A program made the position numbers and the translations under genes. The notes under the pieces were generated by a model. The model saw only the letters and a program-made list of their open reading frames with translations, was not told the DNA's origin and searched no databases. This document shows, one piece after another, positions 4,681-62,765 of a stretch of 64,000 nucleotides of DNA (its first letter is position 1; the number at the start of each line of letters is the position of its first letter). This stretch comes from an uncultured bacterium (GTDB lineage: Bacteria > Zixibacteria > MSB-5A5 > GN15 > FEB-12), in NCBI GenBank assembly GCA_963821635.1, contig CAWGEP010000004.1, positions 318,654-382,653 on the forward strand. The letters are read 5' to 3'.

Positions 4681-5349
4681 AATGGAGCATACGCCGCGAG
4701 GTAATTCCGATTGCCGTCCTGCTGCTTTTCGGAGCTCTTACTCTGTATCTGTTTCCCGGGCTGCCGGACCAAATCCCATCGCACTTTGACCTTAAAGGGA
4801 ATGTCGATCGGTACGAGTCCAGGGGTGCCTTTGTCTGGACATTTTTGGGGATAATGCTCGGGCTGTACGCGATTCTAACGCTGCGTCCCGTTTATCGACC
4901 CGTTCTGGCGGCGGATCAAAGAGCGGTACAACATCTTCCTGATTCTTCGGGACTGTATGATGGTCTGTATGCTGGCCTTTTACACCGTGCTGATCTTGTC
5001 GGCCAAGACCGGGCATCTCAGCCAGACCGGGATGGGGGTGGCGTTTGGGCTGGTGTTCGTGCTGTTCGGTAATTACATGCCGAAACTCCCGAGGAATTTC
5101 TTCTTCGGCATACGTTCCCCCTGGACGCTGGCGTCGGAGGAAGTCTGGAAGCGGACTCACGCCGTTGGCGGCTGGCTCTGGGTCATGGCGGGACTCATAG
5201 TCATCACCATGTCGATTGGCGGAATAGATTTCGGCCTGACGATGCTCGTGGTGATGATCCCACTGGTCCTTTTCACGGGCCTAGTTTACCCGTTCTATCT
5301 CTATAAGAAGCTACAGAAGGAGCACAAACTGACAACGCCGGAGTTGTAG
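4677..5349 (+). CDS. SdpI-family membrane immunity protein (DUF1648 plus SdpI); frameshift near 4884
   Basis: LPDQIPSHFD..G.VD and GNYMPKLPRNFFFGIRSPWTLASEEVWKRTH motifs in two consecutive frames. Confidence 0.88.
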
Positions 5350-54141: not shown

Positions 54142-56973
54142 TCACCGTATTATCACCAACTTCCCGATCTGCACTTTGCCATCAGCTCCCCTCCACCGCC
54201 CAGTAATACAGACCTGACACCACCGTCTGGATATTCCGGTTGATCATATTCCAGGTCTCGTGATGAGCATTCGGATCGGATGGATCTTTGTCATGAGGGA
54301 CTTCAGCAACCAGATCGCCATCAAGAGTCAGGATTCTAACCGTGCATTTCGCCGGGACATTGACGAAATGTATCAGTCTTACCCGGTCATCGCTGGCGTC
54401 GCTGGTTCGGCCTTCGAACCCGGTGTTCCGGTATTTTCCATCAGCTAGGTACGGGTTGGGGTAGACATATACGGGAGGGAGTGTCCCTGCCAATTGAGCC
54501 GAGTCAGCGAAAGCATATCCGGTCTGCATGCCGAGAGTCTTGGAATCTTCGAGGGGCGGCACCCCTTGAGTCGGGTCTCCCCAGTTGAAGGCAGTTACGT
54601 TGACATAGTACTGCATGGTCGGGAGTAAGATTCGGGATAGTGAACTCGTACTCGTAGTACTTCCAGAAGCCATCTGGGGTTAAGTACGTTGAGTCCAACG
54701 TCGCTCCGGGTGGGGGAAGCACAGCGTTGGGATAGATCTTCCTGATCTGCGTACGTCTGTCCAAAGACACTGGCATTAAAGTCATGCGGAACGAAAGTAG
54801 AACTGGGAATCCGGAAACTGAGCCAATCTCAAGTGGATAGCTTTGAGTGTATCTCAATGGATCAAAGAGCGAGTCATGACATGGATCAGTTCCATGACCG
54901 TACAGGCATTTCAGCCGTATCAAGCGTAAACGGCACATCCTTGATCACCCAGGCGCCGAACGAGCCAGATTTCGGATTCCAGATGTACTTGTCGTAATCC
55001 TGTCGATCATAACTCGCGACCAGTGACAAGCTGGATTCCCGGTCATCAAGTCCGTAATAAATTCTGTACCCTTCAAAATCCTGAAGATTAGTCAGGAGAT
55101 TCCGAGCCGTCTCACTGTTTCTTCCATTGAACCGCACACGGATTCCGTGATAAGCCTGCGAGAGCCAGAACTTGGGCTGAGGCGGTGGTCCGGGTGCCCG
55201 CCAATCCGGCACACCATCCCCAGTGTAGTAGGTGGTATCAGCGTTCGTCGGCACCCAGCGACCGTTGACGAATGTTGAGTCCAAAACACAGACTCTGAAT
55301 TTCCCTTTGAATCCGTCCCCGTCCGTGTCCACTCCGGGGTTATCAAAGGCCCACTCGGCTATCTTTGCATTGTGGGCAAGGCTCGAAAAATCGACATGAG
55401 CATACCAGCCATCGACATCACCACTCGCGAGACGGCTCGCCCCAAACACGTCCTGCTGAAATGTATCCCCGGCAATAAAAGCAAAGACCACCGTTTTCTC
55501 ATCACCGCGACGGAGCTCCAACGGTCCCGTGGACAAGAGCATAGACGGGGAGCCCCCGTATCCATGCGACCACAGATTGCCCCAGTAGGATGGTTCCTCC
55601 CAAGTAGGATCATTGGGCTCGATCTTCTGTATGCGCGGTTCATCCGGATCAAACTCTCCATTGGTCATGACCGAGTACTTGTCGGGGTCGCCGGGCGGAG
55701 TACCGGTTCCCCCCGTCCCGAAATCCCACCCTCGCTGACCGAGCGGTACTCGATGCCGCGGTCCGTAGTCCATTTCTGGTCGGAAAGTCCACCACGAGTG
55801 CCACCAGTTGAAGCTGGGATTCCACGCTTCTTTCGGAGCATCGAGAAGCTTAACCCCGATTATGCTTCGATCAGACTTGCTGGGTCCTGAATTCACCCAG
55901 ACCGGCGGGTTTTGAAAGATGTCTGGCTGCCCATCGATACTTGCCGCCCACGCAATATTCAGGGTGTCGACAAATCCGCATCCTTGCCATGACGGCCAGC
56001 TGCGCAAATAACCCCCTGTTCCGGAAGTCGCTATCAGATTATCCGAGGGCTGCATGTGCCCCACTTCTGGTTTAACGAAAAGGCCAACATAAACGGCGTG
56101 CAGATCCTGACGACCAATGTTGGCTATTTTATACTCGACTAAAATAAAGTTGTTGACCAAAGCGTTGGACCACTCTGATGATGTCTGAGTAATGCTCATT
56201 TCCAACGGTTGGTGCAGCCTGTGAGTGCGCCAGTCGGTCAACAGCCCCGGTAATCCCTGGAGAAAAGTATCTGTGTAAACCGCGCGAAAGTCTTGGTCGG
56301 ATCGGGCCTGAGCGGCGGTGAAGGGATCAAGGAGCGAGGCCCTATAGAAATTCCCGAAGGGCGCAACGTCAGGGTATAACTCAAAATTCATTCCATCGGG
56401 TCTCCTTTCGTCGAGACCAACTGACACCAGCGTGTCCCCCTGATCGGTGATCCCACCAACCCAAAGCCCGCCAGAGCGGATGCACTTGTCGCCGGTCCCC
56501 AACGGAAATTCGCCGGCATCGTATTGAGAGCCCCAGACCACCGAGCCTGAGTGACACCCGGAAGAATCGGCCGTGTATGGCGTGGGAGAGAAGTTTTGAA
56601 CGGGTGGGGCATATTGCCCAGAGAGGGAAAACTGTGAGACACCAATCATGCCTCCATTAGTCATGACCAGCGACAGCCTCCCTACATCGTGCGTAGCGGT
56701 ACAATAAGCAAGACCACGAGATACTGATGAGACTTGAATCGGCCGGATCGAATGATCTTCCGTTAATCGGGTGGAATCTCCTATAATCAAGCGCCGGCCA
56801 ATCAAGTTATCTGCGATTGTGATTGGCGAAAGACAAACCACCAACCACATCAACAAGACTGCTCGATTTGTTGTAGGACTCACCCGTCCCCTTCCAAGGA
56901 GATCTGCAATTTGCATTTCCTTCGCCATGCGGCCTGAATTCGCGTCGCTCACAGAGGTTCTCCCGCAGTTCAC
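54142..56973 (-). CDS. Large secreted protein with T9SS type-A-like C-terminal domain (about 3 frameshifts; start uncertain)
   Basis: Joined ORFs 54886..56973, 54504..54938 and 54182..54673; ends VYVYPNPY...SGLYYWAVE..DGKVQIGKLVIIR*; DTDGDG Ca-binding-like motif. Confidence 0.75.
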
Positions 56974-57203: not shown

Positions 57204-57440
57204 TCAAGGCAGAGGGTTGCAGTAGTATGCGTTATTCCAGCATGCAGATGCCGTATTCCTACAAATACCGAGAACCCAATGCCCAATGTTGCCACCGGGC
57301 CCGCCGATTTCGGGTGGACAGCTAATGTGGCAGCACGGATCGTCGCCTGCAAGTGGCTGCTCAGCTGTCCCTAGCACTAATGCAAATGCAAGGGCAAAGC
57401 AGAAGCATGCCGTAGCGAGCATGGCCTTCTTCTTCGTCAT
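57204..57440 (-). CDS. 78-aa secreted Cys-rich peptide
   Basis: RBS AGGAGG; MTKKKAML...VLGTA signal, then CC-x3-C-x18-C-x6-C-x6-C. Confidence 0.8.
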   Translation of the reverse strand: MTKKKAMLATACFCFALAFALVLGTAEQPLAGDDPCCHISCPPEIGGPGGNIGHWVLGICRNTASACWNNAYYCNPLP

Positions 57441-57484
57441 GTTAATTCCTCCTACGAAATTGACGTTTAAGAGTTGAGAATTGA

Positions 57485-58087
57485 TCAATCGGCTGCAGCC
57501 GTTTCTTTCAGAAATCTATCGACATCGTCCGGCAGCAGCGCCGCCGGGATCACCCGCCGGACGGTGAGATCGTCGTCCACCACCAGATTGAATGGGAACG
57601 TGTTTACTTTGTACCGGGATAGCCAGACGGACCTGCGATCACAAAGAAATAGGTTCGACAGTCCGGAAATCCGACGCAGGTTCTCGAGTCTCTGGACATC
57701 TCCGCCCGACAGGAAGACGATACGATTTCGCACTGAGCTATCCGGGATAAGAGTTGTCAATCCGGTGACTTCCTCATCACAGACCATACAATCCGGGCTG
57801 ATGACCCCGATGATCGCGCCGCCCGAGCTGTGTACGAGCGAACTCAAGCGGTAAGTGCGGCCATCCAAATCATCAAATTCACTGTCCTCCAGGGTATCAC
57901 CAATATTGAGCGTATTCATTCCAGCCAGAATCTCATCGCGAAGCTCTACTCGATGCTGTTGCAGCGCCGCTTCTGTCTTCTTGTTGAGCGCGTCCGATAT
58001 GAGCTTGCCGCCAAACCAACCCAGGGCCAGCGCTCCGACTACGATGAAAATCCAAGGAAGAATTTTGAAGTGAAAGAGTCGATTCAT
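57485..58087 (-). CDS. Membrane-anchored thioredoxin-fold (redoxin) protein
   Basis: N-terminal TM; IGDTL....DLDG; SPDCMVC; NTFP cis-Pro loop. Confidence 0.8.
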   Translation of the reverse strand: MNRLFHFKILPWIFIVVGALALGWFGGKLISDALNKKTEAALQQHRVELRDEILAGMNTLNIGDTLEDSEFDDLDGRTYRLSSLVHSSGGAIIGVISPDCMVCDEEVTGLTTLIPDSSVRNRIVFLSGGDVQRLENLRRISGLSNLFLCDRRSVWLSRYKVNTFPFNLVVDDDLTVRRVIPAALLPDDVDRFLKETAAAD

Positions 58088-58404: not shown

Positions 58405-58833
58405 ATGTCCAAACGTCTGCTCTTAGGCTGGCTGGTGGTCTATATCGTCCAGAGCCTGTCCAGCTTCCTGATTCATCACGTCATCCTCGGAAGCACCTAT
58501 GCCGCCATGGGGCAACTCTGGCGCCCGGATATGCAAAGCAAACTCTGGATGCTGGCGATTGTCGGGGTCTGCAGCTCGTTTTTCTTTACGATCATTTTCG
58601 CCCGGTGGCGGCGCAAACCGGGAATGCTCGAAGGGGGGAAATTCGGATTTTATATCGGGTTCTGGATGAGTTTCGCGATGGCGATCAGCACCTATGCGAC
58701 CGCGCCGATTCCGTTTTCGCTAGCGGTGCAATGGTTTGTGTACGGGACGATTGCGTACGCGATCGCCGGAATGGTTTTGGGTACGATTCTCAAAGAGACC
58801 GAGCAGAAGCAAACGGTCGGGTACGGACTATGA
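58405..58833 (+). CDS. Four-TM membrane protein (DUF1761-like)
   Basis: RBS GGGAG; four hydrophobic helices; G.KFG..IG motif. Confidence 0.65.
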   Translation: MSKRLLLGWLVVYIVQSLSSFLIHHVILGSTYAAMGQLWRPDMQSKLWMLAIVGVCSSFFFTIIFARWRRKPGMLEGGKFGFYIGFWMSFAMAISTYATAPIPFSLAVQWFVYGTIAYAIAGMVLGTILKETEQKQTVGYGL

Positions 58834-58848
58834 GGTTTAGGACAGCGG

Positions 58849-59857
58849 TCAGGCGGTTTTCAGGCAGATCGGAAACGAAGCGTACAGATCATGGGTGTGA
58901 GCAAGGTCACACCCCGGCAGCCTCCCTGGCAGCGGGCGAAAAATTCGCAGGAATCGGCAGGTACCGTGGATGCGCGAGCGGGGGAATCTGGCCATGGCGG
59001 TCATGGCCGGGTCGTTCCAGAGATCGCTTAAGGATCGTTGCCTGATATTGCCGACCCGGAACTGGTCATCGAGCAGCGAAGTGCACGGGAAGACATCTCC
59101 CCTGGCGGCGATATACATGATCTGGACACCGGCCACGCAGGGATGAAAATAGTATTCCGACGGGAGCGGGCCGAAGCCGGGGCCGAACATCTCTACGGGA
59201 GAGTTGCGGGTGGAGGCGCCTTCGACAAACGCTTTCAGGCGGTCGCGGTGTTCCCGGAAGAGCAGGCGCTGCACAACATCTTTGCGCTTCCCTCTCCCCC
59301 ACGGCATAAAATTGCAATAGCGGATGTGGGTTACCCCTTCGCGCTTGGCGAGCTGGATGAAATTGGGGGCATCATCGAGATTTTCATGCCCGAGCAGCAT
59401 GGCGAGATCAAGCTGCAAGCCGAGTTTCTTGCAGACGCGGACAGCTTCGATGACCTTATGAAAGTCTTCTTCGGTGGCGTTGCGCATGGCTTTGTTGTGC
59501 TGGGGATCGGAGCCATCGAGACTGATCTGGACATAGGAGATTCCGGCCTCTTTGAGAGAATCGGCCGCGGTTTTCATCGAGCAACAGGCCGTTGGTGGTG
59601 ACGCCCTGGGTGAATTTGCCCCGGGCATGGCCATAGGAAACGATCTCTTCGAAGTCGTTTCGCATGAGGGGTTCGCCGCCGGTCCAGCCGATGGTTTTGG
59701 CGCCGAGTTCGACCAGGCTGTCGATCACGGAAAAGCATTCGGTGGTGGTGAGTTCATCGACCGCGCGGCGGGCGGCGGCGGTGTAACAATGCGGGCATTT
59801 CAGATTGCACTGGTGGGTGATCTCCCACCCGATCATCTCCGGCTTGTCAGAACGCAT
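58849..59857 (-). CDS. Radical SAM/SPASM protein (frameshift near 59570 and a compensating pair at about 58950 and 58900)
   Basis: WEITHQCNLKCPHC, TGGEP, QISLDG; SPASM CVAG...GDVFPC; alternate frame restores CRFCEFFARCQGGCRG. Confidence 0.88.
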
Positions 59858-60014
59858 AGAAGCCAACCTGTCTTTCTTCGGGGGCGCCAACGGCATTCAC
59901 AGCGGGCGCCCCATAAGCCGCCCCGGTCATTCGAACCGGAGCGTCGCGTCATTTCTCCCAGTCGGCGCTGCGCTCAATGAGAGGTCAGTGAGGCGCGGCG
60001 CCGTCCGCCGAGCA

Positions 60015-60107
60015 TCAGTTTGATCCTCTCGGCAGAATTTCAAACAGCTTGCGGTAGCAGGGGCAGGGAATCGCCTTCGGTGTCTGCGGTTTCTGTACCA
60101 GCTTCAT
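60015..60107 (-). CDS. Putative RiPP precursor peptide, 30 aa as read; absent from ORF track
   Basis: RBS AAAGGAGGTGA; ATGA overlap with the upstream rSAM stop; MKLVQKPQTPKAIPCPCYRKLFEILPRGSN. Confidence 0.7.
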   Translation of the reverse strand: MKLVQKPQTPKAIPCPCYRKLFEILPRGSN

Positions 60108-61432
60108 GTAGTCACCTCCTTTCGTGTGCCTGAATGGTGGCGGAGCCTGAGCATCTCTTCGAGATTATATTTCCATGAGCAGCAGGCTCCATGAGTAGAT
60201 TGCTTCAGATCAAGCCCCTGACGGGGGCAGCCTCCCAAACAAAGTGGAAGGATGTGGCACTCCCGACATGCGGACAACTGAAAGGGGTCCCAGGATAGAA
60301 AGCGATTGAGTTTCCGCTCCTGTGGCGGCGTGCGGGAATCCGAAAAGACCGAGCCGACCGCAAGGGAGCGGTCGAGCGAGATTTCTTCCCAGCACTTGTA
60401 CAGATCGCCGGTCGGGGAGATGACAAAGGCGTTCTCGGAATCAGCGCCACAATGTCCTCCCGGCGCCAGCATGGGGTACTCGACCGCGGCCAAACCGGAG
60501 TCGGCCAGAGGTCGATAGAATTTCGTTTGCATCGCAGCGAATGCTCTGGTCGAGAAGCAGCGGCCGCGAATATCGGGACAAGTATTGGAGTGGTGGTTGA
60601 CCGGGGCAAAATAGAGATTGAGGCGAGAAAGAAGGTCGCGGCGCTCTAGTTCGTCGACAAGCTCCGGAACGGTGGCGGCGCTGCCCGAATCGACGTTGAC
60701 GCGAACCGTGATCTGGAGAAGATCCGCGGTTTCCCGGAGGTTCGACAGGATGACCTCGAAGGTCCCCTGCCCGTTAGCGAGCCGACGACGGGTGTCGTGA
60801 ATTCGGGCCGGGCCATCGAGGGTGACCTGAATGTCAGTAATACCCAACTCCTGCAGTGTGATCGCCAGAGCACGAGTGAGGAGATAGCCGTTGGTAACGA
60901 GCGAAGTGGGGAGCAGATTCAGGCGGCGGCGTTGCGAGAGGTCCCGGAGTCCGAGTTGGAGGCGTCGGATAGTATCGACGCACAGGGTCGGCTCGCCGCC
61001 AAACCACGTGATCAGCAGGTTGCGGGCACGTTCGGCCCGGTGCGAAGCAAATTGCAAAACAGTGTCTTCGGTCTCCCTGGTCATAAACGACGGCTGACTA
61101 CTCTCAAAGCAATACTCGCAGCGGAAATTGCAGGACAAAGTGGGTGCGATCGTGAGAAACAGGGTCTCCCCGGCAAAGCGCTGGCGGCGATTCCTGACAA
61201 TTAGAGCGGCCAGTTCATCGGCCTCATTCGGGACGAGAAACTTGCCGTCACACAGGACCTCATGGAAGTTCCGTTCAGACTCGGTCCGGGGTGAGTCCGG
61301 GGCGCTGAGCAATCGCGCGACCGAGGGAAAGTTCTCCGCCTCAATTTCGGCCAGGGCCGCGGAAGCGGAATTGAACAAGAGATATTGATTATCATCTGTC
61401 GAGATAAGGATGTTGAAGCGAGAAGCCTTCAT
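60104..61432 (-). CDS. Radical SAM/SPASM peptide maturase with N-terminal RRE-like extension
   Basis: About 85-aa N-terminal domain (YLLFNS...LAEI); CNFRCEYC; WFGGEP; CGAD...GDLYKC...CRECHILPLCLGGC. Confidence 0.92.
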   Translation of the reverse strand: MKASRFNILISTDDNQYLLFNSASAALAEIEAENFPSVARLLSAPDSPRTESERNFHEVLCDGKFLVPNEADELAALIVRNRRQRFAGETLFLTIAPTLSCNFRCEYCFESSQPSFMTRETEDTVLQFASHRAERARNLLITWFGGEPTLCVDTIRRLQLGLRDLSQRRRLNLLPTSLVTNGYLLTRALAITLQELGITDIQVTLDGPARIHDTRRRLANGQGTFEVILSNLRETADLLQITVRVNVDSGSAATVPELVDELERRDLLSRLNLYFAPVNHHSNTCPDIRGRCFSTRAFAAMQTKFYRPLADSGLAAVEYPMLAPGGHCGADSENAFVISPTGDLYKCWEEISLDRSLAVGSVFSDSRTPPQERKLNRFLSWDPFQLSACRECHILPLCLGGCPRQGLDLKQSTHGACCSWKYNLEEMLRLRHHSGTRKEVTT

Positions 61433-61565
61433 ACCCGGACTTGCTTAACCATTCAGAAAGGGCTTGAGCCGGACACAATGACTGCGGCGGACCCGGGAAT
61501 CGGGCGCGTCAGAGCCTGTGGTCAGCATAATAGAGTGTCGGTTCCATGATGTCAAGAACAAAGGG

Positions 61566-61673: not shown

Positions 61674-62765
61674 CTATTTCCGCTTTTTGCGGTTGGCTAC
61701 GAAATCCCACAGGACATAGCTGCCGAGATCATCGACCGAGGCAAAATAGGCGCGTCCGCGATTGAGTTCGGTCAGGCGCTCGACAAATTTCTGGAGATAG
61801 GGATCATCGGTGACCATGAAGGTAGTGATCGGGATTTTCTTTTTGCGGCAGATGACGGCCTCGTCAAGGGTGCGATTGACGATGCGGGGATCAAGCCCCA
61901 TCGGATTTTTGTACACCTGGCCGTTGGGACGGGTGATCATCGAGGGTTTGCCGTCGGTGACCATGAAGATCTGTTTGTTGGCGTGCTTTTTGCCGAGCAA
62001 AATTTGCCGGGCGACGCGCAGGCCGGCCTGGGTATTGGTGTGATATGGTCCGGCGCCGATGTACGGAAGATCTTTGACGGAGACTTCCCAAGCGTCATCG
62101 CCGAAGAGAACTATGGAGAGATCGTCCTTGGGATATTTGGTAAGGATCAGTTCGGTGAAGGCCATGGCCACCTGCTTGGCGGGGGTGATGCGGTCTTCAC
62201 CGTAGAGGACCATCGAGTGCGAGATGTCGATCATAAGCACGGTGGCGCAGGTGCTGGTCTTCTCCGACTCGAAAACCTCGAGATCGTTTTCCTGCATGTT
62301 CATGCCGAGGTCGCCGGAGCGGGCCACGGAGTTGAACAGGGAGGCGGTGAAGTCGATGTGCCCGGGGTTATCGCCGAACTTGAAAGAACGTTTTTCCGGA
62401 AGGGGTTCGTCGGAACTGCCCCCCTCGCGCGGAAGGCGGTGATCCCCTTTGCCGGAGGCGCGCATTTTCTCAAAGATCTGGTTGAAGGCTTCTTTGCGAA
62501 GGCCGCGTTCCCCTTTGGAGCTGAGTTTCAGTCCGTCCGGGGTTTGGCGCACCATATCGGATTTTTTGAGCAGGTCTTTGAGGTTCTCGAGATCGTACTT
62601 CTCGTCGAGGACCCCTTGCTCCTGCAAACGTTTCATCAAGGCCAGGGTCTCCTCAACATCGCCGTTCATGCGCATGAGGAGATAGTGGTAGATCGCCATA
62701 AGATCGGCGAGATCCTTGAGTTTGGCGAAGAGCTCGTCGTTCCATTCGGAATAGACGAATTTCAC
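61674..62765 (-). CDS. von Willebrand factor A domain protein
   Basis: MIDAS DISHSM, TNTQAGL, VTDG. Confidence 0.9.
   Translation of the reverse strand: MKFVYSEWNDELFAKLKDLADLMAIYHYLLMRMNGDVEETLALMKRLQEQGVLDEKYDLENLKDLLKKSDMVRQTPDGLKLSSKGERGLRKEAFNQIFEKMRASGKGDHRLPREGGSSDEPLPEKRSFKFGDNPGHIDFTASLFNSVARSGDLGMNMQENDLEVFESEKTSTCATVLMIDISHSMVLYGEDRITPAKQVAMAFTELILTKYPKDDLSIVLFGDDAWEVSVKDLPYIGAGPYHTNTQAGLRVARQILLGKKHANKQIFMVTDGKPSMITRPNGQVYKNPMGLDPRIVNRTLDEAVICRKKKIPITTFMVTDDPYLQKFVERLTELNRGRAYFASVDDLGSYVLWDFVANRKKRK

Follow-up and report, generated by a model that had tools for sequence, protein, structure and literature searches.

The stretch of DNA analysed in this work (the window) covers 64,000 nucleotides (nt) from the genome of an uncultured bacterium of the Zixibacteria (assembly GCA_963821635.1, contig CAWGEP010000004.1, positions 318,654 to 382,653). 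Its region 58849-61432 holds, on the minus strand, two genes for radical S-adenosylmethionine (SAM) enzymes, here called rSAM-1 and rSAM-2, and between them a very short gene for a putative precursor peptide, which we interpret as a cassette for a ribosomally synthesized, post-translationally modified peptide (RiPP). The gene order is rSAM-1, peptide, rSAM-2. rSAM-1 (60104-61432) is an open reading frame (ORF) for a 442-amino acid radical SAM/SPASM peptide maturase with an N-terminal domain resembling a RiPP recognition element (RRE). The 30-codon peptide gene (60015-60107) is defined by its ORF, its conservation, profile matches and a codon-position test, and rSAM-2 starts 118 nt 3' of it, in the form of two overlapping ORFs in different frames, the first of 146 codons (59456-59896) and the second of 261 codons (58849-59634). 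The peptide ATG (60107-60105) overlaps the TGA stop codon of rSAM-1 (60106-60104) to give ATGA, and the peptide gene has the ribosome-binding site GGAGGTGA, with the Shine-Dalgarno site AAAGGAGGTGA at 60122-60112 on the minus strand, four bases 5' of the ATG and within the conserved K-E-V C-terminus of rSAM-1. Both the ATGA overlap with a 30-codon ORF and the strong ribosome-binding site had been pointed out in an earlier sequence-only reading of this region, and both are present.

The peptide is organized as a short leader (residues 1-7), a core with P14-C15-P16-C17-Y18 and a hydrophobic L-F-x-I-L-P tail, the consensus being M-K-F-I-E-x-P-x5-K-P-C-P-C-Y-K-x-L-F-L-I-L-P-P. M1, C15 and Y18 are invariant in alignments A1 and A3, with P14, C17, I24 and P26 conserved in at least 90% of the sequences, and the peptide is unusually well conserved along its entire length, including the leader, between families in which the rSAM-1 proteins are only 43-54% identical. 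When 21 distinct DNA versions of an 18-codon block were compared in pairs of relatives, which are not independent of each other, codon differences at positions 1, 2 and 3 amounted to 770, 476 and 1641, and the ratio of synonymous to non-synonymous codon differences was 1118/889 in the peptide frame and 185/1767 and 150/1848 in the other two. Judged by this test, the small ORF is under purifying selection at the amino acid level in the peptide frame only, that is, it is coding. The site GGAGGTGA or near variants of it precede the peptide start in relatives, and start codon and Shine-Dalgarno site are kept in the 30 loci fetched via a peptide profile. With respect to curated models, neither the peptide of the window nor that of one relative matched any NCBIfam family at E<=10, and no Pfam match was found at E<=0.01. 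A search of 1.84 billion representative proteins with the peptide profile returned 17 clusters at E<=1e-3, of which 16 consist of peptides of the same type with 28-56 amino acids; the sole name found in the 10 peptide clusters that were looked up was 'hypothetical protein', and the exact 30-amino acid peptide of the window is present, unnamed, in the public protein collection. A scan of 80 named loci for PC.CY-type motifs gave one match only, which was unrelated.

An orthologue of rSAM-1 with 40-54% identity was found in 14 out of 40 relatives, and in all 14 a second radical SAM gene lies directly downstream. Between both enzymes, a small ORF of 27-34 amino acids with its own Shine-Dalgarno site is present in 10 out of 12 loci, six of which share the same 4-nt overlap with rSAM-1; in the remaining two the peptide is encoded upstream of a duplicated rSAM-1. 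A profile built from 12 peptides was then used in a six-frame search of all 285 genomes of the phylum, and gave matches in 64 genomes at E<=0.1, 34 at E<=1e-3 and 28 at E<=1e-9, spanning at least four families. Of the 30 loci anchored on the peptide and searched with tblastn, all have rSAM-2 and 29 have rSAM-1, the exception being cut by a contig end. In 13 neighbourhoods of 12-17 kb the two radical SAM genes are the only recurring genes (the next gene cluster appears in three loci), and the cassette has no conserved neighbour there for a protease, an exporter, a stand-alone RRE or a dependent dehydrogenase. The cassette is a unit of three genes that stands on its own and occurs in varying contexts. 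These data bear out several proposals of the sequence-only reading: a conserved small ORF beside homologous maturases, synteny of the second enzyme in relatives (14/14 and 30/30 in the two sets of loci) and a cluster devoid of protease and exporter genes. Its description of the peptide as Cys-containing is also apt, since there are two cysteines and the peptide is not Cys-rich.

At some loci (L011, L012 and L138) the middle position is empty, and a related peptide is encoded upstream of rSAM-1 or after rSAM-2. Some genomes carry two to four tandem copies of the peptide gene, each with its own Shine-Dalgarno site. In one of them (G186) four tandem copies lie between rSAM-1 and rSAM-2 (L115 1480-2188; G186:C23:36828-37515), one with a single Cys, one with an in-frame TAA stop and two with Leu at the position of the Tyr that is invariant elsewhere. 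More diverged cores were also observed, such as G-C-R-L-[FW]-Y-I-I (L016), two Y-x-I-I-C-S repeats (G022) and C-T-V-K-G-V-C (G038); what these cassettes have in common is the M-[KR]-h-h-x-x-P leader, one or more Cys and, as a rule, a hydrophobic tail ending in I-L-P-P. The L016 peptides (4870-4956 and 5090-5170) belong to a named Zixibacteria metagenome-assembled genome (MAG) whose maturase is 46% identical to rSAM-1, and combine an M-R-F-I-[EQ]-K leader with a G-C-R-L-[FW]-Y-I-I...C core.

With regard to the family of rSAM-1, the protein matches the Pfam Radical_SAM domain (PF04055, 56.7 bits; gathering cut-off 29.5) and the SPASM model TIGR04085 (53.8 bits; cut-off 27), a check suggested along with the sequence-only reading and passed by the protein; the SPASM match covers residues 328-413 (60194-60451, minus strand). 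The CX3CX2C motif for the radical SAM cluster (61109-61132, minus strand) comprises C101, C105 and C108, which are invariant in the 27-sequence alignment A2, as are seven SPASM cysteines (C328, C347, C389, C392, C398, C402 and C417); the K-E-V C-terminus is also conserved in this alignment. The best NCBIfam match is TIGR04463, the CrpC ranthisynthase family, with 306.8 bits against a cut-off of 525 (residues 6-430 aligned with 1-426 of 438), and the second is the Clo7bot maturase TIGR04334, with 305 bits against a cut-off of 600 (residues 2-432 aligned with 1-433 of 440). By these scores rSAM-1 is placed outside both equivalogs. The next matches (CefB, FlmE/OhkG, geopeptide and PapB maturases) all remain under their cut-offs, and the SCIFF maturase model TIGR03974 gives 81 bits against 425. 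The Clo7bot lead of the sequence-only reading holds for one half of the pair, the maturase, for which TIGR04334 is the second-best match below its cut-off, but not for the peptide, which matches no NCBIfam or Pfam model. Among solved structures, CteB is the best relative both in a PDB profile search (5WGG, E 4.3e-26) and by fold, with Foldseek matches to 5WHY/5WGG at a template modelling (TM) score of 0.64-0.69 over 458-477 columns and 17-18% identity. The best named homologues come from two Zixibacteria MAGs (46% identity), and for orthologues with 43-54% identity the alignment spans the full length. Maturases with 31-34% identity, from Atribacteria-like and other MAGs, were set aside as belonging to other systems; there, a gene for a protein of around 312 amino acids follows, and neither the peptide nor rSAM-2 is found.

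The RRE-like domain proposed from the sequence is supported by the topology of an AlphaFold2 model of rSAM-1 (mean predicted local distance difference test value, pLDDT, of 86.7). In this model the N-terminus (approximately residues 1-88; 61169-61432, minus strand) consists of strands 7-11, 17-21 and 26-30 followed by helices 32-43, 51-62 and 73-86, a block with pLDDT of 88-96, so that the predicted domain shows the order of an RRE (PqqD-like), with three strands and then three helices. The Pfam PqqD model has no match in rSAM-1, and the whole-length Foldseek match to CteB takes in the N-terminal domain. A model of the complex between rSAM-1 and the peptide reached a score of 0.65, the best of three controls scoring 0.01; 58 of 80 solved complexes attain the mark applied to such models, as do 2 of 110 mismatched pairs, figures that are approximate, since alignments were user-supplied. 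At least 47% of the contacts agree between runs, and the pLDDT of the partner is at least 46. Peptide residues 1-8 are predicted to lie on rSAM-1 residues 24-31, which form the third strand, and 55-64, and peptide residues 10-20, including C15, C17 and Y18, to contact barrel and SPASM residues of the enzyme. The fold matches of rSAM-1 include SuiB-SuiA and ChlB-ChlA, leader-RRE complexes of related enzymes with solved structures.

The second radical SAM/SPASM gene without RRE, on the same strand, which had also been noticed in the sequence-only reading, is split in the window and intact in orthologues. Intact orthologues have 337-360 amino acids, with CX3CX2C from around residue 26 and then a full set of SPASM cysteines. 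Their radical SAM core begins some 17 residues into the protein, too early for an RRE to precede it. The pieces in the window pass Pfam gathering scores (PF04055, 56.9 and 38.1 bits; PF13186 in the second piece, 42.9 bits with a cut-off of 21.5). When an intact orthologue (L002) was compared with NCBIfam, the scores obtained were 172.5 bits for AhbD (cut-off 500), 152.1 for MftC (265), 151 for AhbC (650), 150.6 for NirJ2 (500) and 123.5 for PqqE (381), so that every cut-off for an identity as MftC, PqqE, AhbC/AhbD or NirJ is missed. Among solved structures, PqqE is the nearest in sequence (6C8V, E 6.4e-25, residues 16-336 aligned with 32-351). It is the strict linkage to rSAM-1 and the peptide that ties rSAM-2 to the same putative pathway.

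Taken as a whole, these results point to a self-contained three-gene RiPP cassette, and it is very likely that the small peptide is the substrate of a two-enzyme peptide-modification pathway. In the account that we favor, the peptide gene is translationally coupled to rSAM-1 via the ATGA overlap, and peptide residues 1 to approximately 7 (M-K-[FLI]-[IV]-[EQ]-x-P) could act as a very short leader that adds a strand to the RRE of rSAM-1, as in the complex model, where docking of the leader places the P-C-P-C-Y core in the radical SAM/SPASM barrel. By analogy with CteB and CrpC, rSAM-1 would most likely join a cysteine sulfur to the carbon of a nearby residue, giving a thioether of the sactionine or ranthionine type, and rSAM-2 would most likely introduce a second radical modification in the same peptide, such as a crosslink that involves the other cysteine, either borrowing the RRE of rSAM-1 or recognizing the product of rSAM-1. 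We assign a probability of around 0.75 to this full account, including the view, discussed below, that the breaks in rSAM-2 are assembly errors.

Comparison with known systems helps to delimit what is shared and what is particular to this cassette. CrpC of Methanococcus voltae, a TIGR04463 member, has been reported in 2026 to form ranthionine crosslinks in a large Cys-repeat protein with leader recognition by its RRE, the substrate being a 28.8-kDa protein in which a 17-residue Cys motif (C-X-X-Q/D) is repeated ten times (PMC13692751). rSAM-1 resembles it in the RRE, radical SAM and SPASM architecture, in the seven-Cys SPASM domain and in the full-length hidden Markov model match of 306.8 bits, and the two systems also have in common a substrate gene beside the enzyme, a recognition sequence at the N-terminus of the substrate and cysteines followed by putative acceptor residues (PMC13692751). 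They differ in that the described CrpC substrate is a repeat protein, whereas a peptide of 27-31 amino acids with one P-C-P-C-Y center is found here, and in that the consulted passages of the article mention no second radical SAM enzyme for the Crp cluster (PMC13692751). Clo7bot systems are similar in that short Cys-containing peptides are encoded beside the maturase, but the score of 305 is well below the cut-off of 600 and the peptides here match no NCBIfam model at E<=10; no paper on Clo7bot was found in the literature searched, so there is no described chemistry for comparison. The thioether synthase CteB, of the SCIFF (thermocellin) system, is likewise a three-cluster SPASM enzyme with an N-terminal RRE, although its identity to rSAM-1 is only 17-18% and the SCIFF maturase cut-off is missed. 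SCIFF systems have a single radical SAM enzyme and a six-Cys peptide.

Pairs of radical SAM enzymes encoded with a precursor also have precedents. In the case of ruminococcin C, RumMC1 and RumMC2 are reportedly two such enzymes. In this system and in thuricin CD, both two-enzyme sactipeptide systems, the paired enzymes are sactisynthases paralogous to each other, and their clusters also contain genes for export and processing. Here, in contrast, the second enzyme is a different, PqqE-like SPASM protein that lacks an RRE, and the cassette has no linked transporter or protease. In thuricin CD, TrnC and TrnD work as a complex that needs only one radical activity (PMC12093266), which is a precedent for a pair made of a catalytic and a helper enzyme. 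As for PqqE (with PqqD) and MftC (with MftB), the orthologues of rSAM-2 resemble them in having the core near the N-terminus and a full SPASM domain; however, those enzymes use a separate RRE protein, for which the cassette has no stand-alone gene. Their substrates carry a C-terminal Tyr or a Glu-X3-Tyr pair, and the peptide described here has neither. No paper on this cassette was found in the literature searched, supplementary data being outside the search. The cassette sets itself apart by its peptide family, the very short leader, the RRE-less PqqE-like second enzyme and the lack of linked export or processing genes.

The condition of rSAM-2 in the window deserves separate consideration. 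With the closest orthologue as a query, tblastn aligned orthologue residues 4-108 with 59561-59875, in the first piece (frame +2, 64% identity, including CNLKCPHC), and residues 104-344 with 58852-59574, in the second (frame +3, 60% identity, including the SPASM domain), the change of frame falling at 59561-59574, where both segments overlap. In addition, all 11 orthologues in alignment A4 have C-x2-C-x5-C-x3-C at the place of 58903-58953 (minus strand), a stretch of 17 codons that reads differently in the window, with three SPASM cysteines replaced; its length is as in the orthologues, the neighboring frame encodes the canonical SPASM motif and the frame is regained afterwards. One explanation is that the cassette is decaying in this organism, rSAM-2 being a real pseudogene and only rSAM-1, if anything, still acting on the peptide. 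Three frame disturbances in around 1 kb of rSAM-2, next to an intact rSAM-1 of 1.3 kb and an intact peptide gene, would fit with this, as would the fact that it is the sole broken copy, rSAM-2 being unbroken and in a single frame in the other 29 of the 30 loci. However, the assembly (seven contigs, 92% complete) shows breaks of the same kind in two out of five long essential genes, rpoC and secA (rpoB, gyrA and ileS are intact), with local loss and regain of frame that cannot be real; rpoC (G000:C7:281684-285638) and secA (G000:C1:70490-73087) are covered by 4 and 5 matches, respectively, with middle segments off-frame and the original frame regained. Besides, the exact length of the out-of-frame SPASM stretch and its canonical neighboring frame resemble paired indel errors, and tblastn revealed no in-frame stops or deletions elsewhere in rSAM-2. 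Because the same kind of break is seen in rpoC and secA, assembly error is likelier than real decay, at about 3:1, and a cassette in decay seems to us unlikely. For the same reason, read support is needed before any other frameshifted gene of this genome is taken for a pseudogene. In public reads (run X1, 6% of sampled words), two 151-nt contigs covered 59044-59365 only, outside both break sites. Programmed frameshifting in rSAM-2 was considered and rejected, given the single frame in all 29 other loci.

Another alternative is that the product is an intracellular or membrane-bound cofactor derived from the peptide, similar to pyrroloquinoline quinone (PQQ) or mycofactocin, or a redox or metal micro-peptide, with rSAM-2 performing PqqE/MftC-type chemistry. 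Such a product could explain the absence of conserved proteases and exporters in the 13 neighbourhoods, the conservation of the whole peptide and its hydrophobic L-F-L-I-L-P-P tail, and would be in line with PqqE as the best solved relative of rSAM-2 and with MftC (152 bits) and PqqE (123.5 bits) among its best NCBIfam matches. Nevertheless, the cut-offs of all the cofactor families are missed (265 for MftC and 381 for PqqE), genes for a stand-alone RRE, a peptidase or a dependent dehydrogenase are not conserved nearby, the two to four divergent tandem copies of the peptide are typical of natural-product diversification and not of a cofactor, and the distribution in the phylum is patchy (34/285 genomes), all of which makes this explanation improbable. 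A related proposal, which we put forward only as a speculative one with low odds, is a heteromeric machine of both enzymes in which the RRE of rSAM-1 presents the peptide to two active sites, the PqqE/MftC-like rSAM-2 carries out non-thioether chemistry and the product, instead of being cleaved and exported, is kept in the cell or membrane as a cofactor or a metal/redox micro-peptide; if true, this would represent a new product class for this enzyme pairing. That the small ORF is no substrate at all, but arose by chance or serves as a coupling or regulatory leader in the translation of rSAM-2, with the true substrate encoded elsewhere, could be argued from its very short length and two cysteines, the lack of a matching curated peptide model and the empty position between the enzymes in L011, L012 and L138; yet purifying selection on amino acids in the peptide frame only, the related peptides upstream of rSAM-1 or after rSAM-2 where the middle is empty, the tandem copies with their own Shine-Dalgarno sites and the modelled placement of the peptide on the RRE and in the barrel (controls at or below 0.01) leave this idea with hardly any credit.

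Several observations weigh against the account that we favor, in which rSAM-1 forms a thioether and rSAM-2 adds a second modification. The thioether function is an extrapolation, because rSAM-1 scores far below the cut-offs of the two NCBIfam equivalogs, and a product of the sactipeptide or ranthipeptide class is suggested by homology to CteB/CrpC-type enzymes only. Sactionines have the Cys sulfur bound to the alpha-carbon of an acceptor residue, ranthionines to its beta- or gamma-carbon. As assembled, rSAM-2 is split and lacks three SPASM cysteines, so it may be dead in the organism, and its nearest families include enzymes that do not act on peptides (AhbC/AhbD, NirJ). The peptide has only two cysteines, and one of the tandem copies in G186 has just one; moreover, conservation alone does not allow an acceptor residue to be named, because extra copies have L or K instead of Tyr18. 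In the complex model the fold of the peptide itself is uncertain (pLDDT of 47-54), and the good score may have been remembered from the solved leader-RRE complexes rather than being specific to rSAM-1 and the peptide. The missing link to a protease or exporter is unusual for a secreted RiPP, and 251 of the 285 phylum genomes give nothing at E<=1e-3 with the peptide profile. This profile also fails to detect the L016 peptides, and the counts based on it therefore underestimate the family.

Radical SAM enzymes of RiPP pathways are a main source of new peptide chemistry, and the cassette proposed here would be a compact pairing of a CteB/CrpC-like enzyme with RRE and a PqqE-like enzyme without it around one peptide of 27-31 amino acids with a leader of some seven residues. 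Its small size, two enzymes and a peptide that can be synthesized, eases reconstitution, which could reveal how a second, RRE-less SPASM enzyme acts on an already bound peptide, whether one RRE serves two enzymes and what role the product has in an uncultured phylum. In terms of annotation, the peptide family and both enzyme orthogroups are without curated models.

Regarding other features of the locus, a promoter-like site, TTGACA-17-TATTAT, is located at 61527-61555 (minus strand), around 95 nt 5' of the rSAM-1 start, with 11 of 12 consensus matches, as a pattern match only. The spacer between the peptide gene and rSAM-2 (59897-60014, minus strand) contains predicted G+C-rich hairpins, with a fold of -54.6 kcal/mol and a z value of -1.59, which constitutes weak evidence. 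The spacers of five relatives also show hairpins of 9-11 bp, with z from -0.2 to -4.25, and in only two of the six spacers did none of 200 shuffles fold as well. A G+C-rich spacer hairpin was present in each genome examined (also L002 2916-2995, L005 3013-3100 and L110 1591-1680), with differing sequences. It could work as an intra-operon attenuator setting the ratio of peptide to enzyme.

On the 5' side of rSAM-1, the flanking genes encode a VWA-domain protein (61674-62765) and a 379-amino acid protein without Pfam match at E<=0.001 (62762-63901, minus strand). On the other side there are genes for a 142-amino acid protein without family match (58405-58833, plus strand), a 200-amino acid, weakly redoxin-like protein (57485-58087, minus strand; AhpC-TSA 22.5 bits, below the cut-off of 26), a 94-amino acid Cys-rich ORF (57204-57488, minus strand) and a 695-amino acid protein, again without Pfam match at E<=0.001 (54886-56973, minus strand). 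NCBIfam and Pfam family searches revealed no protease or transporter among the flanking genes of the window. The redoxin-like ORF overlaps the start of the 94-amino acid ORF by 4 nt, and the product of the latter is hydrophobic over an N-terminal stretch, with several cysteines in the C-terminal half, so the pair at 57204-58087 may encode an oxidoreductase and a small disulfide-rich protein. Redoxin-like genes were considered as parts of the cassette and rejected, since they are not conserved across the 13 neighbourhoods; the redoxin-like protein of the window and that encoded at L003 633-1226 (Redoxin, 40.3 bits) have no detectable similarity (E 2.9).

A genome-wide motif scan found no further copies of the peptide type described here in this genome, which does carry two related cassettes. 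In one of them, with two radical SAM enzymes, two near-identical three-Cys peptides of 32-35 amino acids that start with M-I-Y-L-I-E-P are encoded upstream of the enzymes (L013 1082-1180 and 1320-1427; G000:C1:464563-464908, with genes up to C1:469283). Its maturase is Clo7bot-like (TIGR04334 as the best match, 331 bits) and is followed by an overlapping gene for an RRE-less SPASM radical SAM enzyme whose best match is to GDL-motif/nif11-type maturases; at the end of this cassette there is a 600-amino acid ORF that resembles an ATP-binding cassette (ABC)-type exporter, by eye only. The third cassette has a lone Clo7bot-like radical SAM gene (C1:425235-426653) and then three different Cys-rich peptides of 39-57 amino acids starting with M-[YTN]-W-[LI]-V-x-P, located 3' of it (L014 805-1368; G000:C1:424602-425165). 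Further downstream, two ORFs resemble an ABC ATPase and a permease, also by eye only. A peptide start of the form M-x-h-h-x-x-P is common to both of these paralogous cassettes.

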